This document shows, one piece after another, positions 11,506 to 51,825 of a stretch of 64,000 bases of DNA; within the stretch, counting starts at the first letter, position 1, and every line of letters begins with the position of its first letter. Under the pieces are notes generated by a model. It did not search any database. It saw only the letters and a program-made list of their open reading frames with translations, and had not been told where the DNA came from. The stretch is from assembly GCA_051599415.1 (NCBI GenBank), contig AP039701.1:186001-250000 (forward strand). The letters are read 5' to 3'. The translations under genes were made by a program, and so were the position numbers. The stretch is from Savitreella phatthalungensis. Taxonomy: Eukaryota.

Positions 11506-14163
11506 TCATCCGAGGAAGCCGAGTAGTTCGGAGATGTAGGACTGGGCGTTGAGCATGAATGGGTTGAGGATGTGGAAAGCGCACATCCATGCGAGTGGGA
11601 CGATGGCGACGATCGAGTTGATCTTGTAGGCGTCTGGGACGGCGAATCTGAGGATGAGGATGATTGCGAGGAAGAATGAGGTTGCGGTGTAGACAATTCT
11701 GTACTTCTTGAAGATCGCAGGAGCTTCTTCCAGGAGTGCTCTTGCCTCGAGCGACTTCGCAGTCGATCCCCAAGACATCTTGCGGTCAAAGAGGTGCTGA
11801 ACGAGAGCTCGTGACACGTGCATCGACACACCCTGGAAGAACAGGATCGGGAGCCAGAAGTGGCGTAGGGAGTCGCCAAAGGCGGCCTTGATGGTGGTCT
11901 CTCTGAGACGCCACTGGGCGAAGGGGACGACGATCAGGTCTCGGAGTCCGAAGATGACGGAGGTGGCGATGATGATGTTGAATTGGTCGATGAAGGCTCT
12001 GTCGAGCGACGTTCTGAACCAGCCAAACAGGAAGTAGCTGACGATGCAGTACACCCACGACGCACCAATCAGCCAGTACGTCCACATGTAGAACAAGCTC
12101 GACATCTTGGCCGCCAGTGGCACTCTTGGCGACCAAACGAACGCCTTGATGACCTCGCCGAAAGGACCCTTCTTGAACCAGAGTCTGAACGGGTTGAACA
12201 TGAGCTCGGAGCATCCCCAGGCGTACTTTGTCCATCGTGCGATCTCGTCGTAGACAGTCAGGGAGACGCCCTCCTCGAATTCGTCGCGATGGTAAGTTGC
12301 CATACGAGTTGAGTATCCTGCGACTTGGCAGCGGAGAGCGACCTCGAAGTCTTCCGATACGTGGTCTTCCGACCACCATTCGAGCGAGCCGTCTGTGCGT
12401 GTCCGCGCCACTTCCTCGATCGCCGACCATCGGAGGAAGGCGTTGTGGCCGAGGAAGGGGCAAAGGTCGCCACCTGCAACGTTGTATCGAATTCCAAAGA
12501 AAACACGACGGATGAAGAAGGCCATGCCGAGTTCCCAGTAGTCGTTGCCGAGGAGGAGGGCGTCGCCGATATGCTGGATGATTGCGAGGTCAGGCGAGTC
12601 ACGCATCTCCAGAACGGCGTTCAGGATACAGTCAACAGGCACACGCGTGTCGCAGTCGATGATCAGGACAATGTCGCCCATGCCAAGGTCGCCCGCGCAC
12701 CAATCAACGTTACCACGCTCTTCGAGAATCTGACGACGGGCCTCCTCGTAGTCCTCCAAGTTGCCTTCACTGGTTCTGATCTCCTTGTACCTGTTCTCGA
12801 TGTCGAGTCCGAGCTGGACGCCGTGGTTCAGGTTTGATGCCTTCTTGAACAGACCCGTACGCTGGAAGCCATCCTTGCCGTGAGGCCGACGGGCGGTCCA
12901 CGAGACATTGTTGACACGCCAGTACTCCTCCCAAATCTTGCGCTGCTCAGGACTTCTAAGCTGACCACCGTCGTCGCAGATCATCAGATTGGCTGTGCCG
13001 CCCTGTGCTTCGTATGTGGCGATGGCGGCGCGGCATGATTGGACAGTTGGGTCAATGACATCCCACAGCTTCTCCTTGTACACAGGACACTTGATTGTGA
13101 CGTGCGGCAGATCTTTCCGACGGATTGTCGTGGTCGGCTTCGTGTGGGAGTAGTACTTGGAGTTACGGTGCATCTGCGCGATCGGACCAAGGAGCTGGAG
13201 TGCTGCGCAAACAATCTGGTTCATGAAGAATGCTGTGAGCATGACGACGAGCGGGATGTAGAGCAGATAGAGTAGGTGCATGTAGTCTGCGCTCTGCATG
13301 ACCTCTGTGATGACGCTTCGAACGATGGTACCCACCATCAGACCCATGACAACGAATGTAAGACCGACTGTAGCCGGCCACATGAGCATCGTTGGACGGT
13401 CTTCGGGAGCATTTGATCCCGTAAGCTCACCATTCTCGAGACGCTGCTCCTCATCGTCCTGAAGCTCGTATTCTTCAACCTTGACCTCCTTTGCATCGCC
13501 GTAGACGCTCTGAGAGATAAGCTTGTCCTTCTCGTTGAACACAAGCTGGTTGATTTTCTTCTCCCAACTAGTAACGTAATCGATCAAATCGAGCGCCTCG
13601 TCGTTCCACAGGACTGCGCCGCCAATCTCACGCACGAAGCAGATTCCGGATCTTTGCATGACGTCGTATGACGGGAATGGAAGAAGATTGTCGACAAGCT
13701 TGTTGATCTTGCCGTCAAGGACGACGCTCGTAGCGATTGGAGGTGAGCTGTCGATGAGAGTGCGTGTGGCTTCGGTGACGAGGATCATGCAGCCGTCGCA
13801 ATTGAGACCACGAGCGATGTGCTCGAGCGTGGTCTTGTCCTCGCCCTCTGGCCGGGACACGTAGACATTGTCGGATGAGCGGACTGTGAGGAGCTGGAGG
13901 TCTTCGTCTTCCTCATCAATGTCGAACCACTCGTTGCCCTCGGCAATCTCAAACAGATGCTCGAGCAGGAGATCTGCCTCGTCGATGTCGCGAAACCAGT
14001 TTGACGGGTCGTCAGCGCTCAGGAGACCTTCTTTCTCGTCCATGTACGCCATCGAGTGGGAGATGGCATTCTTCTGGTGGGTAGCCTGCGCCTGCGCAGC
14101 GTCCGGCGAAACGTACTCCGTCGCCGCCTTTCGCGCCTTCCCGAACACGCTCTTCAGACCCAT
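11506..14163 (-). CDS. GT2 processive glycosyltransferase / polysaccharide-synthase-like, paralog A (885 aa)
   Basis: 2 TMs, then PHVTIKCPVYKE, CDDG, FKKASNLN, IDCD (DxD), FLGHNAFLRW, VSEDF, EIARW (QxxRW position), followed by several C-terminal TMs. Confidence 0.9.
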   Translation of the reverse strand: MGLKSVFGKARKAATEYVSPDAAQAQATHQKNAISHSMAYMDEKEGLLSADDPSNWFRDIDEADLLLEHLFEIAEGNEWFDIDEEDEDLQLLTVRSSDNVYVSRPEGEDKTTLEHIARGLNCDGCMILVTEATRTLIDSSPPIATSVVLDGKINKLVDNLLPFPSYDVMQRSGICFVREIGGAVLWNDEALDLIDYVTSWEKKINQLVFNEKDKLISQSVYGDAKEVKVEEYELQDDEEQRLENGELTGSNAPEDRPTMLMWPATVGLTFVVMGLMVGTIVRSVITEVMQSADYMHLLYLLYIPLVVMLTAFFMNQIVCAALQLLGPIAQMHRNSKYYSHTKPTTTIRRKDLPHVTIKCPVYKEKLWDVIDPTVQSCRAAIATYEAQGGTANLMICDDGGQLRSPEQRKIWEEYWRVNNVSWTARRPHGKDGFQRTGLFKKASNLNHGVQLGLDIENRYKEIRTSEGNLEDYEEARRQILEERGNVDWCAGDLGMGDIVLIIDCDTRVPVDCILNAVLEMRDSPDLAIIQHIGDALLLGNDYWELGMAFFIRRVFFGIRYNVAGGDLCPFLGHNAFLRWSAIEEVARTRTDGSLEWWSEDHVSEDFEVALRCQVAGYSTRMATYHRDEFEEGVSLTVYDEIARWTKYAWGCSELMFNPFRLWFKKGPFGEVIKAFVWSPRVPLAAKMSSLFYMWTYWLIGASWVYCIVSYFLFGWFRTSLDRAFIDQFNIIIATSVIFGLRDLIVVPFAQWRLRETTIKAAFGDSLRHFWLPILFFQGVSMHVSRALVQHLFDRKMSWGSTAKSLEARALLEEAPAIFKKYRIVYTATSFFLAIILILRFAVPDAYKINSIVAIVPLAWMCAFHILNPFMLNAQSYISELLGFLG

Positions 14164-15653
14164 GATCTGGCGATCTGACGAGCTAGCTTGCTATCAAGAG
14201 AGGCAAAGAATGATTTTTCTTTCAAGATGGACAGCGATGCGTCGTGTCGACAGGAGTGATTCGGTGTTTTGTCAGGATGCGTGACGATACTGCTAAGTCA
14301 ATGGTCTCAGATGACTTCTCACTCTCCTTCTCTCTTCCTCGACCTGGATGTCACTCTGAAAGTTTAACACTGACTCGGTGAGCCGTGCGTGGATTACAGG
14401 CAAATGCAAAGGGGCATAGCTGTGACCGGCTGGATATCGGACTATAGAGAAATGAAGCGATGTGAAGGCAACGGGAGAGGAAGGCTTCCTTAACCTGGGC
14501 TGCGAGAGTATTCATCTCTCTGAGTCCGAGCTCACGTCAAGCATGTTACCGAGCGAGCTAAGAACTCGATGTGAGACAGGCTGAAGCGAGAGACATCTGC
14601 AAGACAATCGGTACAAAGGGAATCGTAAAAGGTGGTTGTGGCTTTTCTGCTCGATTGAGGGGCCCAGGGCAAGAAGGATGAAGCCATCCTGTTATTTCTT
14701 GGATGTTGTCGGAGATGAGTCAGTAGCTGTCCCCCCTTGGATATTCTGCTGAAGATGTCTACTTTACGATATCCTTTGTGTAGAGCTGGACACTGCTGGA
14801 TATTATCGAAAGAGTGTCTCAAAATAGAATCCAATGTTTAAATTAGGCAGAAAGTCTTAATTGGATTGGTGGCGTATCATGAGCAGTTATACTCAATCGA
14901 GTGACGGTCCTGCACCCGTAAGAGGAGCATCTCCGTGCGCGAGTATCCATGCAGGCAGCCGTGCGCCAGAGCATGCGTGCGTTGACAGGAGATCCGAGGT
15001 CGATCGTCACAATCGGTCCTGATAGTCTGTGGGTCTGGCTGGACCTAGATACGTGTACCAAACTCTCAGATCGATTCCCGTCAGCCACGTCCAGGCTAGC
15101 GGAAGCGGGAGCGGCAGCTCGACCGCGGTTTACGATATCCACGAGAGCGAGCGAGATGATATGCTTACCCAAGCTGTAGATCTCAATTTCTCGAGACCAG
15201 GTTAACGGGCCCTTTGCAGAAATCTCACGTCACGTCCGCTGCACGACTCGAACTTCCATTAATCCGATGCGTGTTGACGCATGCGATGGTCTCGGAGATT
15301 AAGGACCGTGAAGCAGCAATGACGACAGTGTAGATAGGGACAATGAGTCCGCAGGCAGGAGATAACGTTGTCGACAGCTTCTCAATGCTACATTCTTGGG
15401 AAAGGGAGTTGGGATCACGCTTCTTCACGTGCGACTGGAAAGTGTTGGGTAGAACGTCCCCGACCTATCTATGAAAACATGCACAGGACATTATATAGGA
15501 AATTGTGGCGAAGAATAACATGATGATAGTGCTTCGTGGATGTCTCGCTGTACATTGGAAGGTAGATAGATATGGCTATTGTTACAGATAAAGAGTCTAT
15601 ATGGGTGGTCGTTTCGTGAATGAGAAAGAAGCGGAGAAGAAGGCATAGACATT

Positions 15654-18395
15654 TCAGACACGCCTGTACTGGTAGGTGTCCCTGTCTCCGAGGGCAGAGA
15701 GCTTTGCGATACGCTGCTTGAGGGCAGAGAGCTTTGCTGCGAAGAAGTCTGTGACTTGCTGAGCGTTGTGCTTGAAGTCTCCCGTCCACTCGCTCGCATA
15801 CGAGTTCGGGTTCAGGGCGAATGGCATGATGCCGGAGAAGACCATGAGGATGACGAGCGGTCCGTTCGACGTCACGCCCCAGATGTGCCACTTCCACGGA
15901 GCAAAGGCGAGACCCACTTGGAATGCCGTGAGGATGACGATGATGAAGTACATGCCTTTGAACTGCTTCCAAATTTTCGGTACTTCTGTGGCGAAAGTAC
16001 CGTGCTCGAGTGATTTGGCCGTAGCTCCCCATTCCATGTTGATTGAGCACATGTGGGCGACAAGAGCGAAAGACAGATGGAATGACAAACCTCCGAGAAA
16101 GATGACCAACAGGAGTGACCATTTCCAGTTATCGTAGAGCAACGGGAACAGCGAACCTTCCTTTGCTCGTGCACGCACAACCGCATTGCTCGCAGGACCG
16201 AAGACTGTGAAGACGAGCACCACAGACACGAAAACATCCCAGCCGAGTGAGTAGAACCTGTAGGAAGTCGTAAGCAGCCAAAGTCCCCATCCTGTTGCGA
16301 ATACGTTGACGATCAGAAGAGGCCAGAGAGCGATAGCGTAATAGGTGCCGATGTAGAAAATCATGGTAATTTTACTGAATGAGTTCAGATCAGATTTGAG
16401 GAACGTTCTGAAGATGGTCGTGAAAGGTCCCTTCTTGAACCAGTCCTTGAATGGGTTGAAGACAAGCTCTGAGCAGCCGTAAGCATACTTCGACCAACGA
16501 TTGAGCTCGTCATAGACTGTGAGCGATACACCTTCCTTGAAACCCTTGTCCGAGTATGTGGCGTAACGAGAAATGTAGCCGAGTCCTTGCAGCTTGAGCG
16601 ACATCTCGAAGTCTTCAGACACGTGCGATTCTGACCACCACTTCCAACGGCCGTCAAGTTCGTCCACGTGCGCAACACGCTGGAGTGCGCCCCATCGGAG
16701 GAATGCGTTGTGACCGACAAATGCAGCGGTATCGCCAGCAGCGGTTGCATATCGGAGGGAGAAGTAAATACAGCGTGTGAAGTAGGAGATTGCGTTCTCC
16801 CAGAAGTCCCAGGACACCTGCATCACACCAGAGTCGTGCTGAAGGATTGCGACTCTAGGAGCGTGGGTGAATTCGGAAGCTGCGTCGAGGAAGCAGTCCT
16901 CGGGCACGCGCGTGTCGGAATCGACGAGCAGGATAAGCTCGCCGATTCGGATATTGCCCTGTGCCCAGGCCTCATGTCCGGACTCTCGACGGTAGTCGGA
17001 AAGCACGTCCTCGAGACACTGCTTGTACGCAGCCTGCTCGTCGTCGTCACTCCAGTCGTCCTGACGACGCTGAACCTGCTCCAGTCGGTCTTCCACGAGC
17101 ATCGAGATGTGCATGGCAAAGTTCATGTTAGATGCCTTCTTGAATTTGCCGGCACGGACGAAACCGTTGTGGTTGTGGCCAGGACGAGCTACCCATCCAA
17201 TTTGGTTCTGGGCATAGTACGCCTGTCTGACACGTCGCTCTTCCTCGGAAATGAGCTGCATACCGTCATCGTTGACAAAGATGGTCGCTGTGCCTCCCTG
17301 CTTTTCATATGTCGAGATTGCCACCTTGAGTGACTCGACGGTCGGAATGATGACGTCTCTGAGATCCTCCTTATAGACTGGGCACTGGATCGTGATATGT
17401 GGCAGATCCTGAGTAATGCGGATCGGTGGCTTGCAGGAGTAGTGGCGCGAGTTCTCGTACATGTGGCCGATGGGACCGATCACGTTGAGAACTGCGACCA
17501 CAACCATCAGCGAGAAGAATCCAGTTGTGATGAATTGCACAGGCAGATATAAAAGCACCGCAAATCGCCACCACGTTTTCGTGTAGAGCGATCCGTAGAC
17601 AATCTGCCTCAGAGAAAGCATAAGGACGATGAAGTTAAGGAGAATGGCCATCATGACCATAAATGGCAGAATTAGCTGCACTGGTCTTTCTACGTCGAGA
17701 TTCGGAACTGCAACCTCGGATTCGAGATCGAGCGACTCGATCGTGTAAAGCTCGTGACCCTTCTTTTCGTCCATTGTGTGCGTCTGACCCTTCCACATAC
17801 GGTTGACGAGCTGCTCCTCGATCTGACGAGCGTACGGAATCAGCTTCTTGGCATCATCCGCCCAAACGAGCAAGTACCCGCGATCCCGGACGAAACATGC
17901 ATATTGGTGCTTCTTGATGTATGGCATCGAGCTGAGAGTATCAATGACCTGAACATGCAGATCTGCGCCGAGACGTACATTCTCGACAAATCTCGGCAGA
18001 TTTTCGATGAATTGTGCTACCAGCTCGGAACAGACTGAAATGACAGCCTCTGGCGAGACCACCTTGGCGACCTCGGCGTACAAGGAATCGTCGCCCTGAG
18101 CGGGAGGGAAGCATGCGTAGTCGAGGTGCGATCGGATGGCGACAAGAGAAGTCTGCTCGTCCCAGCACTCGAACCACTCATTGTCGTCGCATGTCATGTA
18201 GAGAAATTTGAGCATCTCCTGAGTTTTTTCACTCCATGCTGGCGAGAAGAGCTCCTCGAGACGGCCATTGACGGCAACTTTGAGAAGTCGCTCTTTCTCT
18301 TCGACGGTCATTGATTCGAGCGGAAGCTCTGTTGTCGGGCCACCCGGCGCAGGTGCGGCCGCTGCAGCCTTTGATTTGCGGAACAAGCGCGACAT
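15654..18395 (-). CDS. GT2 processive glycosyltransferase / polysaccharide-synthase-like, paralog B (913 aa)
   Basis: PHITIQCPVYKE, NDDG, FKKASNMN, VDSD, FVGHNAFLRW, VSEDF, ELNRW; multi-TM. Confidence 0.9.
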   Translation of the reverse strand: MSRLFRKSKAAAAAPAPGGPTTELPLESMTVEEKERLLKVAVNGRLEELFSPAWSEKTQEMLKFLYMTCDDNEWFECWDEQTSLVAIRSHLDYACFPPAQGDDSLYAEVAKVVSPEAVISVCSELVAQFIENLPRFVENVRLGADLHVQVIDTLSSMPYIKKHQYACFVRDRGYLLVWADDAKKLIPYARQIEEQLVNRMWKGQTHTMDEKKGHELYTIESLDLESEVAVPNLDVERPVQLILPFMVMMAILLNFIVLMLSLRQIVYGSLYTKTWWRFAVLLYLPVQFITTGFFSLMVVVAVLNVIGPIGHMYENSRHYSCKPPIRITQDLPHITIQCPVYKEDLRDVIIPTVESLKVAISTYEKQGGTATIFVNDDGMQLISEEERRVRQAYYAQNQIGWVARPGHNHNGFVRAGKFKKASNMNFAMHISMLVEDRLEQVQRRQDDWSDDDEQAAYKQCLEDVLSDYRRESGHEAWAQGNIRIGELILLVDSDTRVPEDCFLDAASEFTHAPRVAILQHDSGVMQVSWDFWENAISYFTRCIYFSLRYATAAGDTAAFVGHNAFLRWGALQRVAHVDELDGRWKWWSESHVSEDFEMSLKLQGLGYISRYATYSDKGFKEGVSLTVYDELNRWSKYAYGCSELVFNPFKDWFKKGPFTTIFRTFLKSDLNSFSKITMIFYIGTYYAIALWPLLIVNVFATGWGLWLLTTSYRFYSLGWDVFVSVVLVFTVFGPASNAVVRARAKEGSLFPLLYDNWKWSLLLVIFLGGLSFHLSFALVAHMCSINMEWGATAKSLEHGTFATEVPKIWKQFKGMYFIIVILTAFQVGLAFAPWKWHIWGVTSNGPLVILMVFSGIMPFALNPNSYASEWTGDFKHNAQQVTDFFAAKLSALKQRIAKLSALGDRDTYQYRRV

Positions 18396-19969
18396 GTTGA
18401 TGCGCGTGTCCCTGTCGAGCTTGTCTCAAGCTGAAGTATGGATAGATGAGGAGACGAGGCGACCTCAAGGTCGTGATGTGTCGAGCGTGTAGGACACAGA
18501 GAGAGAGAGAGTGACGAAGAAGAAGGTTGTGTCTGGAGGTGAGGATATGAGATTCTTCGAAAGCCCTTCGAGAGGGAAGTCGAAGGTAGTGTATATCCTG
18601 ACTGGTGAATTGATCGAGTGAGTGATCGAACAAGGGTTCACAGGCCGGGCGGGTACATTCGATTAGCCAGCTTGTATGGGAGCTTGTGACCCTTAGTCTT
18701 AATACGGGCCCACGAGAACCTGAGAATGATGTCTCTGGTTCGTAAGCGTCTACGTCTACGTAGGAGTGAAAGGGTAAGCTAAGGTGAGGTAAAAGCAAGG
18801 CAATGCAGTAGAGCCGTGCGAGGGCTTGTCAATGTGTTCGAGCTCCTTCTGGTTTGATTGTCTGAGACAGTAAGCGGGAACATCTTTCGTCAATGGATGA
18901 ATGTACGGTTGACTGATTGTAGCTCTGAAGCTAAAGTTATTGCTGAGGCTTGTTCCTCGGTAGATCTTCCACTTGGCTCACTCCCACCCAGCTCTACCAT
19001 GATAAGTGGGTAAGAAGGAGAGCGGGCGCTTGCATGATTCTGGCGCCACTTCGGCCCGTGCAAGTAAGGCAAGATTTTGAGTAAGAGAAGCAGGAGATAC
19101 GCCACGTTTGACTCAGTTCCAGATCTAGCCTGATTGTTCAAAATGGTCAAAGCAGTCTATTCAATCTGACCACAGACAAGAAATTTTTGTTTCAAATATA
19201 AGACCTGGGAGAAGATCCAATTGAGATTGTGCGTACGTGCGTGCATGCATGGATGGCGTATGAATAGATAAAATCGTTTTTGACAGTTGGATTTTTCATT
19301 CAGAGTGCAAATCTTAGCGACTGTATCTAGGAAAGGCTAGATACGCTAGTGTTTCATCTTGTTTCATCTTGTTTCGAATTGTTTCAGAGTGGCGCGTGGC
19401 TTTGTGAGGCGCAATGTCTTAAAATAGGAGATCCACTCACTCCTCCACTCACTTACACCCCGACTCACTCGCTCATCCATGGGAGACAGAATGACAAAGG
19501 AGTATTTGCTTGAACAGTATACCAAATCACACTTACCAGGTACACTTAGAATGGGCATTCACATAACCGAGTGAAGCGAGACTTGTCTCTGATTGTTACT
19601 CTCCTTGACCTCTTCCACCAGAGACGCAATCTATAGGCAATATTCAGAACATAATCTAAACTGATCTGTGGTCACAGTCAGTGAATAGAACAGAAGAGTA
19701 GTCTGCTATCAACGTCCGAGCTTCCTGACGACGTATGCTCTGACATACTTCACCGACATCTCGAGCTCTCACTTTTGCAATCACTCTCTCAAACAGACAG
19801 ACATCCAGAAGATATCTTCAACGCAGGACCTTGACCTCATCACTCCAAGGGGAGTTTAATCGGAAACGCTTTTGTGCGCTCTACTATCTCAAGACAACCA
19901 CCTCTCCGAAGGCAGGCTTCATCTGCGATACCAGATCGCTCTTCACTGTAGCAACACACTAGTTGCGCC

Positions 19970-21418
19970 ATGGAGTCGACGCGCATTTCTATCGACTCGA
20001 GTGATTCCTACGACGAGTCCCCACGAGATTTTCACGCACCACTCGTCATGTCTACCGTCCGTCGCGCATCATACTCTACAGAACCGGTGCGGACGCGCCG
20101 GAGAAAGTCTGCGCACAACCCTTTTGCCGTCACAAAGGGCGAACGTACAGTAAATAAGACTGGACTACGGATCCGTCGAAACGAAGGCTGGGGTCGGGTG
20201 ACTGAAAAATGGTGGCTAAACGCAAAGGCCACGCGGGAGGACAGGATTGGATATTGGCTCGTTTGGGCTGGTGTAGCACTTGGTTTCCTGTGTGCGTGCG
20301 GTTTCGCTGTCTGGGGCTACTTTGACGGATTCCAGCCGCCCACGTGCACGTTCATCAAGGAGAACTTCAACTACGAGGGCATCGATGGCAACACCTGGCG
20401 TCACGAGGTCTCCAGCGGAGGTTGGCACCAGGGTGGCTTCGAGTGGAACACAGACTCGTCCGAGAACTCATTCATCAAGAATGGTCAGCTCCACATTCGA
20501 CCTACGCTTACAAAGTCCTACCCGGATGGCACCAACATCAACCTGACGACCGACGGTGGTTGCACAGACCCATACTACTGGTGTTCCATGTCCCAGAACT
20601 CGACCAATCACACGAGTATCAACCCCGTACAATCTGCAAAGATTTCAACCAAGATGAACATGACATTTGGCACTGTCGAGGTGCGTGCAAAGATGCCAAA
20701 GGGCGACTGGATCTGGGCTGCCATCTCGCTCAACCCAGCAGACACCTACTACGGCGTCTACCCCGCAAACGGTCAACTCGTGTTGGCTCAGACGCGTGGC
20801 AACAAGCGCGGCTACCCGCAAGGTGGTCGAGAGCGCGTGGACTCCTTCCTTCAGGTCGGTCTCGATGCCCAGCAAGGTCTTTCGCGCTCGTACGGTTCCC
20901 AGATGATCCGAAAGTTTGACGACTACTCTGACGGATTCCACACGTTCGGCATTCAGTGGAACCGATGGTCGATCCGTACTTACATCGACGACCCTACCAA
21001 CACGGTGATGCTGGTTGAGCCGTGGAAGATGCAGGGATACTTTGTGGGACTACACCTGGACCAGTGGGTGTATTGGCCAGGCGCATACGACAACTTGGCC
21101 ACCAGCTACCCTGACATGTCTGCCCCGTTCAACCGCGACTTCTACCTCACCCTCCAGGTCGGTGTCGGTGGCATGAACGGCATCTTCGATGTCGATCAGC
21201 CCTGGACACTCACCAACGGCAGAGACTACGCCCTCAACCAATTCGCCCAAAACATCCAAAACAACACAGCCAACTGGCCAGAAGGAGACGACAGAGACCT
21301 CATCATCGATTCAGTCACCATGCGAAAGCAGTGTCACGTCACACCCTACAAGAAGCACCCGTCTAAGGGCGGTCTCGGTTACCAGGGAAGCTTGCTCTCT
21401 GGTCTCGGGATCTGGTAG
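19970..21418 (+). CDS. GH16 beta-glucanase/GNBP-like type II membrane protein, catalytically degenerate (482 aa)
   Basis: N-terminal tail and one TM ('YWLVWAGVALGFLCACGFAVWGY'), 'GGWHQGGFE', 'INPVQSAKI', 'VRAKMPKGDWIW', 'FHTFGIQW', 'APFNRDFYLTLQVGVGG'; the ExDxxE site reads QLVLAQ. Confidence 0.88.
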   Translation: MESTRISIDSSDSYDESPRDFHAPLVMSTVRRASYSTEPVRTRRRKSAHNPFAVTKGERTVNKTGLRIRRNEGWGRVTEKWWLNAKATREDRIGYWLVWAGVALGFLCACGFAVWGYFDGFQPPTCTFIKENFNYEGIDGNTWRHEVSSGGWHQGGFEWNTDSSENSFIKNGQLHIRPTLTKSYPDGTNINLTTDGGCTDPYYWCSMSQNSTNHTSINPVQSAKISTKMNMTFGTVEVRAKMPKGDWIWAAISLNPADTYYGVYPANGQLVLAQTRGNKRGYPQGGRERVDSFLQVGLDAQQGLSRSYGSQMIRKFDDYSDGFHTFGIQWNRWSIRTYIDDPTNTVMLVEPWKMQGYFVGLHLDQWVYWPGAYDNLATSYPDMSAPFNRDFYLTLQVGVGGMNGIFDVDQPWTLTNGRDYALNQFAQNIQNNTANWPEGDDRDLIIDSVTMRKQCHVTPYKKHPSKGGLGYQGSLLSGLGIW

Positions 21419-21635
21419 TATTTCATCCATCCATACATTAAGAACTTCAGAGCGAATGGCGTATCTGTACACACATAAAATCAACCACCTGTCGCGTGGC
21501 GTGGCGAGGACACTCTGTTTTCGACCGCAATCGAATGGGGTCTTGTCTTTGTATGTGAAATAGAACAATTGATCTATATAGTGTACAATGAATCGTCAAC
21601 GTTGTGAGGGAAAACGCGAGTGTGTGTCTCTCTTT

Positions 21636-24365
21636 TTAGAGGTGGAACTCTGAGAGGAAGGACTGCGGGTTGAGGATGATTGGTGCTGCGATGTGACAAC
21701 CTAGCATCCAGGCGATTGGTAGAACGACTGTGAGTTCCCTGATCTGCCACTGTGAGGGGACGGCGAAGGCGACGATGACGAGACCTAGGGCGAGCGTGAC
21801 CCAGACGGCGTAGTAGTACTTGAACCTGCGCCAGATCATCGGCAGCTCGCGGAAGAAGTGTGATTGTTCGAGCGTCTTGGCAGTGGCACCCCACCTGATC
21901 GGGATCTCGAACAGGTGGCAGATGAGTGGGACGGTGATGTGCATGGAGAGTCCGCCGAAGAAGACTGCGAGCAGGGTGATGTACTTCATGTTCTCGAACA
22001 GCGCCACAAACAGGTTGCCTCGACCTGTGCGGAAGCGGAAGATGGCGTTGATCACGGGCGTGAAGACGTTGAAGACGACGAGCGTCGACAGCAGAATCGA
22101 GAATGCCGACTGGTACAGGTTCGTGATGTTGACGTTGTACCAGCCGATCAGGAAGTAGTTGATCACCGCCAGCGGCCACCACGAAGCGATGGCGTAGTAT
22201 GTGCCCATGTACGCGAGCATCGTCAGCTTCGAGAAGCCACGAATCGTGCGTGTGCGCAGGAAGGCGCGGAAAAGTGGTGTGAACGGACCACGGATCACCC
22301 AGAAACGGAGTGGGTGGAACATGAGCTCAGACACGCCGTACGCGTACTTCTGCCAACGTGAGATCTCATCGTACACGGTAAGGGAAACGCCTTCCTTGAA
22401 TGCGCCGTTGCTGTAGGATGCCATGCGGACGAGGTAGCCGAGGTTCTGGAGTTTCAGGGAGAGTTCGAAATCTTCAGAGACGTGGCGTTCTGACCAGTAC
22501 TTGGTGGAGCCTTCCTCTTCCCAGGCCAGTTCCTGGACGGCTGACCAGCGGAGGAAAGCGTTGTGGCCGACGAATGGAGCGACGTCGCCGTTCGCGCAAG
22601 CCCACATCATCGAGCTTGTCACGAATCGGGTGAAGTGAGCCATCGTGTCTTCCCAAAAGTTGTTGACGACCTGGAAAGCGTCGTTGCTGTGCTGGAGGAT
22701 TGCGAGTTCGGGCGAGATGTGGAATTCGGTGGCGGCGTCGAGGAAACAGTCGTTCGGGACACGCGTGTCGGCGTCAACCAGGAGAATCAGGTCACCGACA
22801 CGGCAGTTGCCATCAGCTTCCGCTCCAGCGCTCTCCGCCAGCGTCTCGCGCAGGCACCGATCGTACTCCTGCAATTCGAGCACGTCCGACCAGCCTTCCG
22901 TGCGCTGAACCTGCTCGAGCTTCATTTCGATGCGGTTGGCAAAGTCGAGTGCGTAGTTCATGTTTGAGGCCTTCTTGAACTTACCGGCACGCACGAAACC
23001 GTCCTTGCCGTCCGGAGGACGTGCGATGTAGCCGATACCGTGCATCTTGTAGTATGCAAGACGCTTCTGGCGCTCCGACATTGGCAGCAGCTGCAGACCG
23101 TCCTCACAAACGAGAATCGAAGCTGTTCCGCCTTGTAGCTCGTAGGTGCGAATGGCCTCGCTGATTGACTCGAATGTGTGCGACAGCACCTTCTCGAGGT
23201 CCTCCTTGTAGACAGGGCATTGGATCGTGATGTGTGGGAGCTCGGATGACTGCTTGATCACCGGTGCAACGCCAGAGTAGTACTTGGAGTTTGTGTTGAG
23301 CTGAGAGATCGGTCCGAAGAGCTGGAAGATGAGTGATGCGATGAGGTATGCGAAGAAAGAAGAGAAGAAGAACAGAAGCGGGAAGTAGAGAACGATACCG
23401 ATGGCGATGTAGTTGCCCTCCGCACGAATCTGTTTCACCACCTCGTGAATCTCATTACCGAAGAAGACAGCAAGGGCAAGGAGGGCGACGGCGACAATCA
23501 TGGCCTGCACGAAAGGCTCCTTGCGCTCGACCTCCATCGCGCCCTCGAGATCGACGATAGTCACGTGTGCTGCAGACACGGCCTTCTCCTTCTCGTTCTG
23601 AAGAGCATTCTTGCTCCGCTTCTTGCTCGACCAGACCAAGTTGACCATCTTCTTCTCTAGCTCCTCGGCGAACGGCACGAGCGTCGCCGCGTCGTCTGAC
23701 CACACAAGCATGCTGCCTGTCTCAACGATCAGGGCGGCAAACTGGTGACGACGGAGGGAATGCACGTCCGCATAGCTCTGGAGCACCTGAATCTGTGTCG
23801 AAGAGTCGAGCGGAATCTGGCGGACTGTGGGCAGAACGTGCTTGAGCAGAGTCGTAGTGATCTTGTTGGTCATCTGCATGATGACCTGGCACTGAAGGTG
23901 GCCGGCAATGTCGACGAGACTGATTCCCTCATCATCCTGAACTGCCTCCTCTGGCGATGGTGCTGTCAGATAAGGAATGAGTGAAAGTTCTTCCTGTGAC
24001 TGGGCGTACGAGTCCGAGCCCTGGGCGCGCAATGCTACCTTGACTTCGCTGTCTTGAGCGAGCTTGAACCAGCCATTGTTGCGGCATCGCTTGTACAAGT
24101 GACGCAGCATCAGCTGGTTCTGGTACGATTGCTCCCAGCGCTTTTCGCCGAAATCAAAGATGGAGCTCGGGCGAGAGCTGTCAACTTCGCTCGGAGCGTT
24201 CGAGCGCAGAAATCCGTGGATCATCTCATTCTGAGCAGCACTGAGGTCGGAAGGCACGGGAGGAACGAGTCCAGATGGCGTGCCATTGGTCGTCGACGAT
24301 GCATCAGGTGAGTCTTGCGGGTTCGGCGTCAGCTTCTTGAAGCCCACCTTGTTGAGAAAGCCCAT
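21636..24365 (-). CDS. GT2 processive glycosyltransferase / polysaccharide-synthase-like, paralog C (909 aa from the first ATG)
   Basis: The ORF-track start at 24431 is TTG; the first ATG is at 24365 (MGFLNK). PHITIQCPVYKE, CEDG, FKKASNMN, VDAD, FVGHNAFLRW, VSEDF, EISRW; multi-TM. Confidence 0.9.
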   Translation of the reverse strand: MGFLNKVGFKKLTPNPQDSPDASSTTNGTPSGLVPPVPSDLSAAQNEMIHGFLRSNAPSEVDSSRPSSIFDFGEKRWEQSYQNQLMLRHLYKRCRNNGWFKLAQDSEVKVALRAQGSDSYAQSQEELSLIPYLTAPSPEEAVQDDEGISLVDIAGHLQCQVIMQMTNKITTTLLKHVLPTVRQIPLDSSTQIQVLQSYADVHSLRRHQFAALIVETGSMLVWSDDAATLVPFAEELEKKMVNLVWSSKKRSKNALQNEKEKAVSAAHVTIVDLEGAMEVERKEPFVQAMIVAVALLALAVFFGNEIHEVVKQIRAEGNYIAIGIVLYFPLLFFFSSFFAYLIASLIFQLFGPISQLNTNSKYYSGVAPVIKQSSELPHITIQCPVYKEDLEKVLSHTFESISEAIRTYELQGGTASILVCEDGLQLLPMSERQKRLAYYKMHGIGYIARPPDGKDGFVRAGKFKKASNMNYALDFANRIEMKLEQVQRTEGWSDVLELQEYDRCLRETLAESAGAEADGNCRVGDLILLVDADTRVPNDCFLDAATEFHISPELAILQHSNDAFQVVNNFWEDTMAHFTRFVTSSMMWACANGDVAPFVGHNAFLRWSAVQELAWEEEGSTKYWSERHVSEDFELSLKLQNLGYLVRMASYSNGAFKEGVSLTVYDEISRWQKYAYGVSELMFHPLRFWVIRGPFTPLFRAFLRTRTIRGFSKLTMLAYMGTYYAIASWWPLAVINYFLIGWYNVNITNLYQSAFSILLSTLVVFNVFTPVINAIFRFRTGRGNLFVALFENMKYITLLAVFFGGLSMHITVPLICHLFEIPIRWGATAKTLEQSHFFRELPMIWRRFKYYYAVWVTLALGLVIVAFAVPSQWQIRELTVVLPIAWMLGCHIAAPIILNPQSFLSEFHL

Positions 24366-24813
24366 GGCGTCGAGGCGTGAGCAGGACGAGATGGTGTCCT
24401 GTCTTGTCGATAGAGGTGGTGTCTTGTACAATGGAGGTGTGTCGATGTCGGTCGTGGATGTCGAGTCACGAGCGGTATGGACAAGGCAGGGGCTTTAGGA
24501 AGGACGAGTGGCAGGTAGATGAGTGATCAATTTCTCCCTCTTGCACGATCGCGCTCTCTATGCAAGTCCTGGGAAATCGATCTGGGTGTACCACAAATAA
24601 GGGTATGTGCGCCGTTGGAAAGAGTTACCTGAAGGTAGATGAGAGTAAGTGAGGTTTAGCGTCATAGAGCCGAGTACCGGCTGTCATTCTGAACCCCTTG
24701 GCTATCCTTGTTACGGTTTTATGTCTTAAAAAAGTAGCGCGCGCGTGCGTACCCGAGGATGCGCATTTTGCACTTGCGTCTGTGCCGTCCCGTGAAAGAG
24801 AGCTGTGCGGCTC

Positions 24814-24834
24814 TGTACTGTACTGTACTGTACT
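24814..24834. repeat. (TGTAC)4 pentanucleotide repeat
   Basis: tgtactgtactgtactgtact. Confidence 0.7.
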
Positions 24835-25553
24835 CACTCGTCGATGTGGCTTCAAGTGAGTCAAACTGAAATGTCGAGCAAGAGAACCGTGCTCAAGGGA
24901 GCGTTGTCTGAAAGGGTTTCAGTGGTAAACGAGGATTCAGCTGGTGTTTGAGCTTGGTTAGAATATGATTCAGTTTTGGCAGGGTGGCTGCATTAGAAGC
25001 GCCACCTGATCAAATTCCCACAAAGGCAATCAATTCGATTTCTTCTTTTAACTCAACTTTGAATCATCTCTCATTGACACTAAAGTAGCACATCACCGGG
25101 TCAGACAGGGGCGCTCAGGCAGTGTAGTAATATGACAGCAATCACATCGCAGTTTACCTCTTGTCAATGTTGATCTGGTACACTTCAAGCGAGGATCTTT
25201 GTCTTTTTCCATGGCAGAACACCATTTGTCGGTCGGTCTCTACAGGGTTATTTGCGAAATCTGTCAGAGTCTAGATCTGAATCATTGCAGATTCTGTTGA
25301 GAAGAGAATGACAATCCAAGCACAATGATTGCTCTGACACGACACGACGATCTATCTCGCATCAGACCTTCGTGCTCGGGAAGTGTCTCATTAGAGGGAT
25401 AAGAAGTATTGATGTAATTCAAAGAAAGGCTGATAAGGATAAGAAGGAAGAGTAAGTTGAATAGAGATTGCGTGATTCGTGGGTCGAGATTGTTGAAGAG
25501 TGATAGATGGAATGAATATGATCATTCTCTCTGGTCCCATAGATTTGTTTCAA

Positions 25554-25622
25554 TCTCCTCCTCCTTCTCCTCCTCCTCCTCCTTCTTCTTCTTCTCCTTC
25601 TTCGAACTCGTTCTTCTCCTCC
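25554..25622. repeat. CT-rich (CTC/CTT)n tract in the GT2-C/GH16 intergenic region
   Basis: ctcctcctccttctcctcctcctcctccttcttcttcttctccttc. Confidence 0.75.
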
Positions 25623-26697
25623 TAAACCTACGTGCGTATGAATGAAGATTGATAGAAATTGATTCACATGCGAGATTGATCGACATTTTAAGCGATTTAC
25701 CGATTTGTAACGGTCACAAATATGATTTCGGACATTTTTATCAGAATCTGGTTTCACAGGATCGATCAAATTCATATACCATCACTTAAACTTTTAATTG
25801 ATCTCCTTGCAAATCTTATGTCGAATTTTCAGCCACAGTGTCAGAAACTGCTTCCCGAGAAAGAGATGATCAAATTGAAGATTTTGAATTACAGCAAGAA
25901 GCAGCAGCAGCAGCAGTAGCAGCCGACAGGTGGATGTGGTATGATGTACCTCGATTTTATTCATTCATTCATGCATGCAAGCCACTCTCTGGCGTCAGCT
26001 CAATCGATCAAATTCCCAAAAGAGAAAGAAAGGTAGAAACGACTGTAAGAAAGTGGAAAAAGTAAATTTAAATTCATGTAATAGAGACTAGATTGTCTGT
26101 CAAAGTGAAGCCTTCAATTTAGGTAGAACTCCTGGCTGCTGTTGAGTTACCCGCATATCCATGGGCAGTTACAAACCAAGCCCTTCAGCGCTCTGTGACT
26201 TTGACCTCCCCGACGAACGAGAACGCATCACAATGTAAGACAAATTGCTCAGCCAAACGATGCGGCAGCCCGCCCAGCTGATAGTTTTTGTCTATCAAGT
26301 TCTCACTGTGGTCAGACCGGTCTTACAATGGTCCATCATATCGGCTACAGTAGCGTCTGATATGATTCCTTCTTGTCTTAGCCGATCACGCTTTACTTTA
26401 CAGCACAGTCTCATGCGCGTCCGTGCTTGACTTGAGGCATCCTTCATGTCTCATTGAAAAGAGTTTGATCGCGCTCGCTTCCTATCAAGAATAGCCCTTG
26501 TGCAGGAGCAGCGAGCACTTGCTTGTCTGTGTAGAGATCCTCGATCACAACTTCCTCCTACCTTTTACATCCCTGTAGTTCCTTCATCAGAACGCAGACG
26601 CCCAACGACAAGACACTTCACGACATCAGACACTTCTTCTCATCCACCTACACACATAAGACTCTCTTAGCATTCCTATTCATACAGTAACTACACA

Positions 26698-28125
26698 ATG
26701 TCCTCGCCAGGCACATCGTCGCCAACGATGACGCCGCAGAGCCCGAACGTTCGGACTTCTCGCAATCTCGGTCTACACAAGTCAGGCTCTGGCTTCTTCT
26801 CGGTAGGATCAGGCAGCACTCGACCTGGTTCATTTTACAACGGCGCCAGCTCTCGCGCTAGCTCGTTCATCCTCAACACATCCGCCTACACACGTCCGTT
26901 CAAGTCTCGGAGAATTGACACGGTGAATGAGAAGGCATGGCTGCAGAAGCGGCATTCTGGTTGGAGAAAAGCCGGTACCATCATTCCCTTGATTGGTCTT
27001 TTCTTTTTCCTCGTCATCATCGGTCTCATGGCCTACACGGGATGGCACTCCTATGACACAGAGAAGTTCTGCCCGTATTGGGAGGACGACTTTTCGTCTG
27101 GTCAGCTTGACAGCAACGTGTGGTCGCACGAGGTGCAGCTTGGTGGATTTGGAACAGGTGAATTCGAGCAGACTACCACTTTCTCAAACAATTCTTACAT
27201 TGAGAATGGCAAACTCGTGATCATGCCAACAGTCTCGTGGTACAACGGATTTGACAATTACACGCTCAATCTGACGAGCTCAGGTGAATGCACGAGCGTG
27301 TATGACTCCGATTGCGCTGCGCTCAACAACGCTACCTCAGGCTCGATTCTTCCGCCGGTCCAGTCTGCACGTTTGAACACGCGCAAGGGCGCCAATATCC
27401 GCTATGGAAAGGTGGAGGTGACTGCTCGTCTGCCTGTCGGCGACTGGCTCTGGCCGGCGATCTGGATGATGCCTACAAAGAGCGTCTACGGAGGATGGCC
27501 AATGTCTGGCGAGATTGACATCATGGAGTCTCGCGGAAACGGTCACAACTATTACACTGTCGATGGTGGCAACCCAGGCGTCGACATGAAGCTCAAGCAC
27601 TATCCTGCGGGCAACAATGCCGTGGGCTCGACGCTACACTGGGGCGCCGACTCGAGCAGCAACAAGTTTTACAAGACAACGAACGGCTGGCACTACCCAT
27701 CCAACATCAACGGTCTCACGGACGGCTTCCACACCTACGGTATGGAATGGACACCTCGTGGCATCCGCATGTTTGTCGACCACGAGCTTACGCAGATTGT
27801 GTACTTCAAATTCCCCGACTCTGGCTTCTGGAACTGGGGAGAATTTGCGTCCAACATCATCAACCCGTGGTTCGGCGGAACGAAGGCGACTCCGTTCGAC
27901 CAGGAATTCTACCTAATTCTGAACGTCGCTGTCGGTGGCACCAACGGCTACTTTGCCGACAACGTCGACACAAAGCCATGGACCAACGGTCTCACTCGCG
28001 ACCAGGCCATGACCCAATTCCTACGGGCAAAGGAACGCTGGCTACCGACCTGGGGAGAAGGCACGAAGCGTGCTCTCGTCGTCGACAAGGTCAAGATGTA
28101 CAAGCCATGCAACATGATGAAGTAG
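26698..28125 (+). CDS. GH16 endo-beta-1,3-glucanase/GNBP-like type II membrane protein, catalytic motif intact (475 aa)
   Basis: Ser-rich N-terminal tail, one TM ('IIPLIGLFFFLVIIGLMAY'), 'GGFGTGEFE', 'PPVQSARL', 'GDWLWPAIWMMP', 'WPMSGEIDIMESRGN', 'PFDQEFYLILNVAVGGTNGYF'. Confidence 0.93.
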   Translation: MSSPGTSSPTMTPQSPNVRTSRNLGLHKSGSGFFSVGSGSTRPGSFYNGASSRASSFILNTSAYTRPFKSRRIDTVNEKAWLQKRHSGWRKAGTIIPLIGLFFFLVIIGLMAYTGWHSYDTEKFCPYWEDDFSSGQLDSNVWSHEVQLGGFGTGEFEQTTTFSNNSYIENGKLVIMPTVSWYNGFDNYTLNLTSSGECTSVYDSDCAALNNATSGSILPPVQSARLNTRKGANIRYGKVEVTARLPVGDWLWPAIWMMPTKSVYGGWPMSGEIDIMESRGNGHNYYTVDGGNPGVDMKLKHYPAGNNAVGSTLHWGADSSSNKFYKTTNGWHYPSNINGLTDGFHTYGMEWTPRGIRMFVDHELTQIVYFKFPDSGFWNWGEFASNIINPWFGGTKATPFDQEFYLILNVAVGGTNGYFADNVDTKPWTNGLTRDQAMTQFLRAKERWLPTWGEGTKRALVVDKVKMYKPCNMMK

Positions 28126-28598
28126 ACATTGTCGAGCATGTCGTCAGAACCACTGACGACCTCGACTGAGTTCTCTGTACACTATAGTAGCGGTCTGCCA
28201 ATACACGCCGCACACGTCTCCAGGTGGGCTGTGGGAGGGAGACATATTAGATTGCACGTACGCACACGTGAAGAAATACATAAATTTTGACTTCTCAATA
28301 TTGAGCATCACCCAAAATTATGCATTGCATTGAGCAACTATCCGAATCTGTACCCAGGTGTTCGGTCGCAGTTGATCAGATCAAACAAGTGCTTGCATCC
28401 ATGGAAGGGATTTTGTGAATTCATGCATCAATTCCCCCAAAACCGGATCTTCCCAATCTCGCGCGATATTCTCCGTTGCAACGAGCGGTTCTTGCATTCG
28501 TATCAATCGGCCATCACGCACATAGAAGGCTATTAGTCGATCGACACCTGCAGATTGTATCAGAAAGCTCGCTTTCATATCTTAGATTCTCGAAAGAC

Positions 28599-48866: not shown

Positions 48867-50211
48867 CGCAGCTGCATGAGTCTGTATGGCTGTTGAGCTT
48901 CGCTTTGCTTTGGCTTGCTTGGTTGGGTGCTTGCTGGTGGAGGAAGACGAGCTCTTGGGGGAGTCACAATCTGAGAAGAGTGAAGATGAGGGGCTTATTG
49001 CTGCGCTTCAGTCAATTGCAATACTTCGCCACAAGAAGTTTAAATTTTGAACTTTCAACAAATGCTTCTCAAAAGTGAATTATTCCGCTTCAAACCTCGC
49101 CAGGCAGGAGTAAAGGTACTGACTGAGGTTGAGGATACCTTCCAACGCCACTGCCGCCATCGATCCTCTCTTGTTCCCTGCCCGCATAGCAGCGGCCATC
49201 CTATACTCTACCATACAGGCAATGACGTTCAATCATCAGCTTCTACTCACACGTACTCCGACCGCTTCGACCGCAAAGTGATCACCGTTGGAAATACTCC
49301 GGAGTGTTCATCAAATAGGCGTTTGCCATCATATTCATGTCAACATGTGAGTAGTACGGCGCTACGGCTATTATGCGTGCTTAGCTCTCGTCCCTCAGCT
49401 ACCAAGTTCCCCTCACGAGCACGTTGTCCTGTCCTCTGGATCACAGCACCGAGCTCGATCTGGAACGCGACCATCTGAGGCTTAGTCTACATCAACGTGC
49501 GCATACGAGTCTATTCACTCGCACACCAGGCTTTCTACGGGAACACATCCATGGGCAGACAAGCCAGTAGAGTCCATCACATACTCGTGCGTGGCTCAGC
49601 CGGCAACGTTCAGCGATGTGCTTTCAGCGACACTGGTTGGTCGTGTCGATATCCTTGAGAACATCGTTCACCTTCACTGAAAGTGTTCCCATACCACTGA
49701 ACCATGCGCAGTGCAGCACAGCCGCCAACGCCATTGTCGCTATCTACGAACGCACACATTGGCTGAATTAGCCTGCGTGCCTGAGTTTCCATTCATACCC
49801 GCGGGTAAATGCACATCGCTCAGGCTACTCCACGCGCATCATACCGCGAAGCTTATTCCCCGAGGACCATGTAGTCCTGCGGAGACTCCAAAGTCCGGTG
49901 TGCTTGCGTCAAGCCTACGAGGCTCCGCTTGACGATCTTCTCGTGCTTCACATTCCGAGCCTCGTAGATTAACATTTCCCGGTGTGTTGTCATCGTACAG
50001 CTCTTACTGATGAGGGCGCAGGCTTTGGAGCATCGTCGCCTATGTTGACCCGCTCCAAGAATAGCATCACGAGCGTCATGCCGAAGCCTAACGGCGACAA
50101 CAAGGACAGGACGATATATAAAGACTCACGCCTAGCACCTTGTACGAGTTCACTAAGACATTCGCTGGACGCAGCCACCACGACAGCATCTACATTGAGG
50201 ACCCCATTGCA

Positions 50212-51825
50212 ATGCACAGCTTCCTCCTCGTGACTGCTTCGGCAGTCCTTGCAGCTTCTGCTGGAACTTTGCCTGAGCTCGAAAAGCGTCAGGCTCCACC
50301 ACTCTTTGCCTCTGGAGGCGAAACTACACTAGCACAGCGTGCAACCTTCCTCTGCCCAGCCGGCATCGATGGCGCTTTGCCGCTGAACACGACTCACGAG
50401 TTCGGCCTGCGTTTCTGCAGCAACGTTGACAGATGGTCTCCGAACGATCTGTTCTCCTCCCAACCCCTCCTGAACGTCGGCTCACGCAACTACCGTGGCG
50501 CAGCTGCTCAATGCGCACCTCGTTGTGCGTCGTTCCCTCAGTGCGAGACCTTCTCGATCACCTCGATTGGCACACCAACCAACTCGTCTTTCAACTGCAA
50601 CCTCTACAACAGGACAACAATTTTCCGTGGCAACACCACGGGCGGTCTGTTCTACGCTCGTCAACGCAATCAGACAATCCCACAGCCATCCACTGTCACT
50701 CAGGTCCGCACGACCTGCCCCGTTGCACCGACGACTAACGCCGGCGTTGCTCCTGGTCTTTCCACGATTCGGAACCCAACTGCAACGCTGACGCAGTTCC
50801 CAGTTGTCGTCGTCATCCAGTCTCGTACTGTGACGGTGACCGCGGCAACGCAGACCATCACACGAACGACCACGATCGGCAACGCCGGAGCTGCACCGAC
50901 TGTGATCCAGTCTGCGGCACCGATCAACGTCTTTATTGGCCAGACTGGCCCAATCCAGGTCACCCAGATTGTCAACAATATCGTCACTGTGATTGTGGTG
51001 ATTGTCAACGGTGATCTTTCTCGCCCTACCACGACCTCGACTGTCCAGGCTGCTCCATCGGCAACCAACTCCTTCACACGCCCTGCCAACAGCGTGACGG
51101 AGTTCCAGTCTGTGCGACGACCCGCATTCGCCTTCATTCTGTCATTCGCGTCGAACGTGCAGCGCTGGTCTGCTGACCGATTGACGTCGTCGACCCCAAT
51201 CGCCGACTCGACCTATGCAGCAGCTGCACGGGAGTGCTCTGCACGATGTGACCAGGCTGCCAACTGCCAGGCCTTCTCTGTTGCACCCACCACCGCCGGC
51301 GGCTCGACCTTCAACTGCAACCAGTACGACGTCGCCCAGGTCGCCAACGGTAACACCAACGGCGGCCTCTTCTACGCCCGCACAGAGAACCGTGCCTCCC
51401 AAGCAGGCGGCAACCCGCAATGTCTCGGTGCCGTGACGCCCGTGAACTCTGGGACGACGACGTTCTTTAGGGAGTTCTGCGCCCAGAACTCTCGCTACAG
51501 CCCTGCTGTGCTGATTTCGGGAACTGTGGTGACAGGGTCACGCGAAGGTTCGGCTGAACCGATCGTTGGGGCAGTCAGGACCTGTGCTGCCAACTGCGCG
51601 AACGCACTGCCGCAGAATACCTGCAGGACTTTCTCAGTCACCTACACGGACGGTCCGAACGTCGTCGCCGCCATCGACGGCATCCCGCAACCAATCAACT
51701 TCAACTGCAACCTCTACAGAAACGACCCGGCAACAGGAGACGTCCCAACGATCAACGCACAGACTAACGGCGGCGCATTCTACAGGCGTCTGATTGCATC
51801 CAACGCCACCATGACCGCCAGGTAG
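50212..51825 (+). CDS. Secreted protein with three Cys-containing PAN/apple-like repeats and a Thr/Val-rich linker
   Basis: Signal peptide MHSFLLVTASAVLAASA, Kex2-like LEKR|Q, and three repeats of C-x3-C..C-x2-FS..FNCN-x-Y..GG-x-FY-x-R; TATATAAA at about 50115. Confidence 0.85.
   Translation: MHSFLLVTASAVLAASAGTLPELEKRQAPPLFASGGETTLAQRATFLCPAGIDGALPLNTTHEFGLRFCSNVDRWSPNDLFSSQPLLNVGSRNYRGAAAQCAPRCASFPQCETFSITSIGTPTNSSFNCNLYNRTTIFRGNTTGGLFYARQRNQTIPQPSTVTQVRTTCPVAPTTNAGVAPGLSTIRNPTATLTQFPVVVVIQSRTVTVTAATQTITRTTTIGNAGAAPTVIQSAAPINVFIGQTGPIQVTQIVNNIVTVIVVIVNGDLSRPTTTSTVQAAPSATNSFTRPANSVTEFQSVRRPAFAFILSFASNVQRWSADRLTSSTPIADSTYAAAARECSARCDQAANCQAFSVAPTTAGGSTFNCNQYDVAQVANGNTNGGLFYARTENRASQAGGNPQCLGAVTPVNSGTTTFFREFCAQNSRYSPAVLISGTVVTGSREGSAEPIVGAVRTCAANCANALPQNTCRTFSVTYTDGPNVVAAIDGIPQPINFNCNLYRNDPATGDVPTINAQTNGGAFYRRLIASNATMTAR

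Follow-up and report, generated by a model that had tools for sequence, protein, structure and literature searches.

GH16-1, a gene in a 64,000-nucleotide stretch of contig AP039701.1 of Savitreella phatthalungensis (hereafter the window), encodes a membrane-anchored GH16 protein that has lost the catalytic residues of its family. We consider it slightly more likely than not that GH16-1 is an ancient pseudo-enzyme, maintained by selection, and that it acts as a non-catalytic subunit, anchored in the membrane, of a GT2 system for polysaccharide synthesis. This reading is preferred because the catalytic triad is gone in all 11 clade members found, because the fold, cysteines, transmembrane segment and tail are conserved, and because the gene is linked to GT2 genes and to an active GH16 gene. 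In this lineage of plant-surface yeasts, the dead GH16 most likely acts as a non-catalytic helper in making a cell-surface polysaccharide.

A GH16 gene without catalytic residues

The gene and the parts of it that are discussed below are as follows:

19970..21418, + strand: GH16-1, open reading frame of 482 aa, a catalytically dead (judged by its sequence) single-pass, predicted type II, membrane GH16
20099..20218, + strand: conserved basic juxtamembrane tail (residues 44-83), predicted to be cytosolic, a candidate synthase-docking segment
20255..20311, + strand: single transmembrane segment (residues 96-114), with one hydropathy peak in 11/11 clade members and an AF2 helix at 89-120
20714..20728, + strand: WAAIS in place of WPAIW, from BLASTP against GH16-2; the cleft role is taken from the mapping to ULam111 W98/W102
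20774..20791, + strand: dead motif QLVLAQ (residues 269-274, with Q269, V271 and Q274) in place of ExDxxE

The codons at 20774-20791 (CAA CTC GTG TTG GCT CAG) read QLVLAQ. BLASTP against GH16-2, the paralog in the same window, gave 32% identity over 408 columns (E 5e-55), with the motifs aligned without gaps. The first-pass annotation had placed QLVLAQ opposite EIDIME of GH16-2 and WAAIS opposite WPAIW, and both changes are borne out by this alignment. Mapped through GH16-2 onto ULam111 (5wut), E272, D274 and E277 fall on the catalytic residues E118, D120 and E123, as given in the available part of PMC5595797. In WAAIS, the first stacking Trp (W249) is retained, and the second has become S253, a position that is non-aromatic in 11/11 clade members. 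GH16-1 belongs to the GH16 fold family, with a PF00722 match of 31.4 bits against a cut-off of 22, and none of the three acids of ExDxxE is kept in any clade member (0/11). A Kre6-type identity was rejected, as PF03935 does not match GH16-1 and the single PF03935 match of the genome lies on another contig (C14).

A conserved clade of dead GH16 proteins

The homolog search yielded 36 matches among 3,806 candidates, of which ten reached E <= 1e-134 and the next ones fell to 1e-61. These ten orthologs, one of them from Taphrina deformans, are 47-54% identical to GH16-1 and form a clade of 11 with it. Q269 and Q274 are invariant throughout the clade (11/11), and the position of the Asp is occupied by V, I or T, also in 11/11. 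The first-pass annotation had proposed a pseudo-enzyme rather than decay and had suggested an alignment of orthologs as a check. All ten orthologs found carry Q-x-[V/I/T]-x-x-Q and none retains Glu, so that its proposal stands. As 11/11 clade proteins share Q at both Glu positions, chance and sequencing error are excluded for the GH16-1 motif; a sequencing artefact would also have to recur as the same substitutions across a clade at about 50% identity. Across 306 aligned rows, E-D-E occurs in 249 and Q-[V/I/T]-Q in 17, and these 17 comprise 16 rows of the dead clade or its cluster members and one cockroach protein. The latter, a GH16-like protein (P0247), reads QITIVQ, the same double Glu-to-Gln state as in the fungal dead clade, presumably by convergence.

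Across the 11 sequences, the luminal domain has 95 invariant columns out of 330, and its four cysteines are all invariant. Invariance is rare among the luminal Gln (4/20), and both motif Gln are among the conserved ones. In matched pairs, the dead clade shows 53-67% identity versus 65-75% for the active paralogs, which means that the dead proteins evolve faster, but within bounds. Codon adaptation, which is a proxy only for expression, is 0.556 for GH16-1 (seventh among the genes of the window, 22 in all, three of which formed the reference set) and 0.506 for GH16-2, and codon bias is strong in the GH16-1 luminal domain (CAI 0.613). The five genes of the module described below (11506-28125) rank 4, 5, 7, 8 and 10 of 22, above most of their housekeeping neighbours, which hints at strong expression.

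We saw the dead clade only among Taphrinales-like sequences, and by its nearest named relatives the lineage belongs to Taphrinales. None of the 18 loci that a metagenome scan obtained from 165 pattern matches showed Q..Q: 16 read ExDxxE, the alignment of L036 could not be read and L038 had no row. A viral scan gave 0/12, and the ESM Atlas returned only a generic ascomycete GH16 cluster (0.97).

Loss of catalysis has been surveyed in subfamily GH16_4, in which about 9% of members, from Metazoa and Fungi, are affected (Viborg et al. 2019, PMC6827312, available text). A dead fungal GH16 is thus unsurprising in itself. GH16-1 is a putative member of this subfamily, going by the names of its homologs ('beta-1,3-glucan-binding', fungal and metazoan). 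It shares with the non-catalytic GH16_4 members the laminarinase-derived jelly-roll, the position of the beta-bulge motif and the lost catalytic residues (PMC6827312). However, the losses described in the available text of that survey are non-monophyletic and come with no fungal function, whereas the GH16-1 clade is supported at 100/99, is anchored by a transmembrane segment and is linked to GT2 genes. In the openly accessible literature that was searched, we found no case of a membrane GH16 that is dead, conserved and a fixed part of a cluster of GT2 genes. Fungal non-catalytic GH16_4-like proteins, until now a survey statistic, thereby gain a concrete and testable setting: a dead/active pair beside three synthases, in two module copies.

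The fold is conserved, the cleft is not

The AF2 model of GH16-1 is a jelly-roll (pLDDT 78), with laminarinase 4bow as the top Foldseek match (E 2e-18). Net positive charge precedes the transmembrane segment in 11/11 clade members, and five N-glycosylation sequons and four cysteines follow it in GH16-1. From these features and the presence of a single transmembrane segment, a type II topology is predicted. The same single-pass, tail-in arrangement, resembling that of Ghs2 and Sbg1, is predicted for 11/11. The tail is itself conserved: 15 of its 58 columns (residues 38-95) are invariant in the 11 sequences, compared with 0/37 in the far N-terminus.

The substrate cleft has fared differently. 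Of 96 columns that are >=90% conserved in 107 ExDxxE relatives (those of <700 aa among P0042-P0158), the dead clade keeps 55, is mixed at 20 and has lost 21. Among the lost columns are those corresponding to R71, W102 and H137 of ULam111 (H137 was located by motif rather than from the printed alignment). These three are replaced in 11/11, whereas W98 is kept and W113 has become Y or F. In GH16-2 numbering, R225 is changed to K/T, W256 to a non-aromatic residue, H314 to Q/V/S/A and N409 to Q/H in 11/11, and W267 to Y/F. The residue set of a laminarinase-type binder (equivalents of R71, W98, W102, W113 and H137) is therefore incomplete. As judged from these alignments, the fold of GH16-1 is kept and its cleft is not. 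The earlier statement that the flanking GH16 blocks are intact thus holds for the fold, but not for the substrate-cleft residues, which are largely replaced. Because these residues were replaced in addition to the triad, canonical laminarinase-style binding cannot be assumed. The cleft floor may still contact something, since both motif Gln are invariant when only 4/20 luminal Gln are.

This evidence bears on the reading that GH16-1 is a membrane-anchored lectin whose remodelled cleft binds a glycan and guides, senses or masks the polymer. Replacement of Glu by Gln keeps size and hydrogen bonding, the invariance of both Gln would be accounted for, W249 is kept and W267 is replaced by Y/F, the cockroach protein shows the same state, and non-catalytic binding proteins are described for GH16_4 in the available part of PMC6827312. 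Nevertheless, the equivalents of R225, W256, H314 and N409 are replaced in 11/11, and a masking role would be more expected of a secreted protein than of one that spans the membrane once. The insect proteins betaGRP/GNBP3 resemble GH16-1 by sequence in their inactive glucanase-like GH16 domain. However, they are soluble, and their glucan-binding part is an N-terminal domain some 100 aa long (PMC7915573, available text), whereas GH16-1 is single-pass, with a basic tail and no such domain. The domain in question, CBM39 (PF15886), which is the glucan binder in betaGRP according to the same source, has no match in GH16-1 and is present on the animal matches P0029 and P0032. With the cleft lost and the N-terminal glucan-binding domain absent, the analogy to betaGRP is weakened, and we consider a lectin unlikely, though the best of the alternatives. 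The first-pass annotation had read GH16-1 as a glucan-binding guide, scaffold, sensor or masking protein; the scaffold for a synthase is the option that we favour, and glucan binding by analogy to betaGRP has lost ground.

A module of three GT2 genes and two GH16 genes

The window is gene-dense and fungal, with housekeeping genes that include those for a COP coatomer subunit, EF-2 and cytochrome c1. GH16-1 lies in a module of five genes in the order GT2a(-), GT2b(-), GH16-1(+), GT2c(-), GH16-2(+). Its other members are:

11506..14163, - strand: GT2a, DUF7928 and GT2 processive synthase-like protein of 885 aa (PF13632 and PF25550)
15654..18395, - strand: GT2b, DUF7928 and GT2 synthase-like protein of 913 aa, head-to-head with GH16-1 (Pfam, AF2)
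21636..24431, - strand: GT2c, DUF7928 and GT2 synthase-like protein, first ATG at 24365, head-to-head with GH16-2 (open reading frame, Pfam)
26698..28125, + strand: GH16-2, paralog of 475 aa with an intact EIDIME at 27511-27528 and the same single-pass architecture (open reading frame)

All three GT2 proteins combine DUF7928 with PF13632 and have DDG, DxD and xED motifs, and ExxRW instead of QxxRW. They thus show the features of processive GT2 enzymes (D, DxD, xED and a QxxRW-type motif with a transmembrane channel), the BcsA-like fold having been checked for GT2b: its AF2 model has a pTM of 0.80, and its best Foldseek match is the bacterial cellulose synthase BcsA (E 9e-15). With NCBIfam, the matches obtained were to MdoH, for GT2a and GT2b, and all lay below threshold, and a PDB sequence search with GT2b gave no meaningful match. 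The polymer is probably a beta-glucan. The mixed-linkage glucan synthase TFT1 of A. fumigatus is a fungal GT2, as are the module proteins, and was compared by description (bioRxiv 10.64898/2026.09.17.752320). The criterion for TFT1-type synthases is 70-96% identity to AfTFT1. GH16 and Taphrina are both at 0 mentions in the portion of the text available. For the DUF7928 GT2s themselves, no function or product was found in the openly accessible literature that was searched. The repeat families listed for 14100-28400 consist of paralog similarity and short matches, with no shared promoter element among them.

Linkage of GT2 and GH16 genes in other genomes

Outside this genome, linkage was read from contig sizes that are equal to the base pair, rather than from the DNA directly. 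By this measure, 14 of the 22 contigs listed for the 10 clusters of dead-clade orthologs have the same length as the contig of a GT2b or active-GH16 ortholog. All 10 dead-ortholog contigs of at least 8.6 kb are matched, and the eight without a match measure no more than about 8.5 kb. Counted per cluster, the link to GT2b occurs in 7/10, that to the active GH16 in 5/10 and either in 8/10. In Protomyces, a contig size of 579,512 is common to a dead GH16 of the type found on C12 (see below), a GT2 and an active GH16. The first-pass annotation had paired GH16-1 with its active paralog and tied it to synthases, and the recurrence of this linkage elsewhere, as well as a second module in the same genome, is in agreement with that.

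The pairing extends further than the dead clade. A GH16 and a GT2 gene have consecutive locus tags in Saitoella, several Lipomyces and Pezizomycotina pairs lie on contigs of equal size in bp, and 2 of the 18 metagenome loci (L028 and L029) contain a match to the GT2 N-terminus head-to-head with an active GH16. This recurrence beyond Taphrinales indicates that the GT2-GH16 pair is old and wide. DUF7928-GT2 and membrane GH16 genes thus appear, from these sequence data (P0061/P0317, P0125/P0324, P0151/P0358, L028 and L029), to be a widespread ascomycete gene pair. The DUF7928-GT2 family is large (2,283 matches among 7,998 scored candidates), and its members often share contigs with a membrane GH16 across Ascomycota.

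A second module and the origin of the dead copies

A search of the genome identified six GH16 matches, and GT2 matches in six genes. The three GT2 genes outside the window lie on contig C12 at 83-105 kb, in a diverged copy of the module (83200-106330). There, an active GH16 (EIDILE) is head-to-head with one GT2, and a dead GH16 (RIDIAQ), with Arg at the nucleophile site, lies between the other two. Frame shifts in the C12 GT2 genes coincide with intron-like GT..AG sequence, whereas the GT2 genes of the window are uninterrupted open reading frames.

The pairing of GT2 genes between the modules is based on FastTree and on summed tblastn scores. In the tree, each window GT2 pairs with a C12 GT2, with supports of 92 (GT2a with C12-88k, under a long-branch warning), 100 and 98. 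By summed tblastn, the best match of each window GT2 is its proposed C12 partner, but for C12-88k the scores with GT2c (533) and GT2a (526) are nearly the same. This region was pieced together from parts, and a single base is absent where two of them join. In a GH16 tree of 30 rows taken from 72, the two active clades are sisters (100/99) and the dead clade is well supported (100/99). Support for uniting the two dead clades is 90/78, and 88/77, which is not starred, once the cleft columns are removed. The sequences make a single origin of the dead copies likely. The simplest reading is that an ancestral five-gene module already contained a dead copy and was duplicated later. A recent local tandem origin from the GH16-2 clade was rejected by the AU test (p-AU 0.001).

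Other GH16 proteins in the data show partial loss of the motif. P0012 (ELSIFE) and P0160 (ELVMAS) lie on contigs equal in length to those of the DUF7928-GT2s P0326 and P0422, respectively, and the tree places them close to the dead clades, although this placement is weakly supported. Going by their motifs, they are possibly intermediate states of motif loss. In S. phatthalungensis itself, contig C5 carries two membrane GH16 paralogs about 14 kb apart (665018-666262, + strand, and 679889-681109, - strand), which have intact motifs (EIDLIE and EIDIFE), are sisters in the tree and have no GT2 match nearby.

The joint retention of dead and active genes raises the question of whether GH16-1 is a regulator or heterodimer partner of GH16-2, acting as a chaperone, an allosteric partner or a competitor for a docking site. 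Dead and active orthologs are on contigs of equal size in bp in 5/10 clusters, two of these contigs (4425 and 4514 bp) are too short for a GT2 in between, and both module copies retain one dead and one active gene. Also, catalytically dead Ghs2 is described as a dominant negative in the available part of bioRxiv 10.64898/2026.02.18.706439. However, GT2b is linked to the dead gene no less often (7/10 clusters), and in both modules it is a GT2, not the active GH16, that is head-to-head with the dead gene. We therefore judge such a partnership to be a little less plausible still than a lectin.

That GH16-1 retains a non-canonical catalysis through other residues is very improbable: invariant polar residues that are specific to the clade (N255, D291, D341 and N344) could be invoked for it, but the nucleophile, the helper Asp, the acid/base and the His are all lost, and in the C12 copy the nucleophile position is occupied by Arg. 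Least credible of all is that GH16-1 is a duplicate in decay, a redundant one, or a product of faulty sequencing. It does evolve faster than its active paralog, but 11 sequences at ~50% identity have full-length open frames with the same substitutions, invariant Cys and fold residues and, in GH16-1, a luminal CAI of 0.613.

GH16-1 as a candidate synthase subunit

We return to the reading of GH16-1 as a synthase subunit. With the tail in the cytosol and the jelly-roll outside or in the lumen, the tail and transmembrane segment would dock on a GT2, of which GT2b is the likeliest by gene position. There, GH16-1 would help the GT2 to fold, traffic or stay active, as Sbg1 and Ghs2 do for the Bgs synthases of S. 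pombe. The dead jelly-roll, placed over the exit pore, could be a spacer or a protein-contact domain. The chain leaving a synthase capped by GH16-1 would be neither cut nor transferred there, and GT2c would be paired with the active GH16-2.

The closest precedent is in S. pombe, where Ghs2 docks with Bgs3 and Sbg1 with Bgs1 via the transmembrane segment and N-tail (bioRxiv 10.64898/2026.02.18.706439, available text). According to the same source, catalytically dead Ghs2-E419A still supports Bgs3 localization, and a tail and transmembrane construct without GH16 does not rescue ghs2-2, catalysis being required. Ghs2 and GH16-1 are alike in that they are single-pass, with an N-terminal tail and an outer GH16, and Sbg1 is a non-catalytic partner. 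Unlike GH16-1, Ghs2 is Kre6-type and needs ExDxxE, Sbg1 has no GH16, and the synthase, as the available text describes it, is a GT48 and not a GT2. If the docking model is true, the synthase-plus-GH16 principle of the S. pombe GT48 system would apply to GT2 as well, and GH16-1 would be a natural example in which the GH16 is a pseudo-enzyme.

A more distant comparison is offered by KORRIGAN, a GH9 protein, and by CTL1, a chitinase-like GH19 protein that is not known to be active or to be single-pass. In Arabidopsis, KORRIGAN and CTL1/POM1 represent an active glucanase and a hydrolase-like glucan-interacting protein that serve a GT2 synthase (PMC7256069, available text). Their genes are unclustered, however, and belong to other families, which makes this an analogy only.

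We predicted a complex of GT2b (40-878) with GH16-1 (38-130), which scored 0.51, compared with 0.00 for the best control; the verdict is weak, and our alignments did not enter the prediction. At least 43% of contacts recur between runs, and the partner pLDDT is at least 48. Of the solved pairs, 51/78 reached the mark, as did 2/108 mismatched pairs. With a score of <=0.60, it was reached by only 5/78 solved pairs but by all four passing mismatches of 180, which means that this band is more often wrong than right. In addition, 7/44 blindly drawn neighbours pass, and the score does not discriminate between paralogs. Resemblance to solved complexes of a synthase with its anchor, such as BcsA with BcsB, may also account for part of it. 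The prediction would accordingly shift the odds for the subunit model only a little. Docking by itself also leaves the invariance of both Gln unexplained, which speaks against a role in docking only.

A bolder and doubtful extension is that Taphrinales possess a five-gene system in which three GT2s have interchangeable GH16 caps. The active cap would cut or branch the chain and the dead cap, docked in the same manner, would release it uncut, the choice of cap would set the length and branching of a surface glucan, and DUF7928-GT2 with GH16 would be a general synthase-modifier module. Which wall components of Taphrina are perceived by plants is an open question (PMC12152203, available text). 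The window itself encodes a further protein (50140-51825, + strand) that is Thr-rich, probably secreted and contains PAN/apple-like cysteine repeats (PF00024, E 4e-08), and its sequence makes it a possible surface adhesin or lectin.
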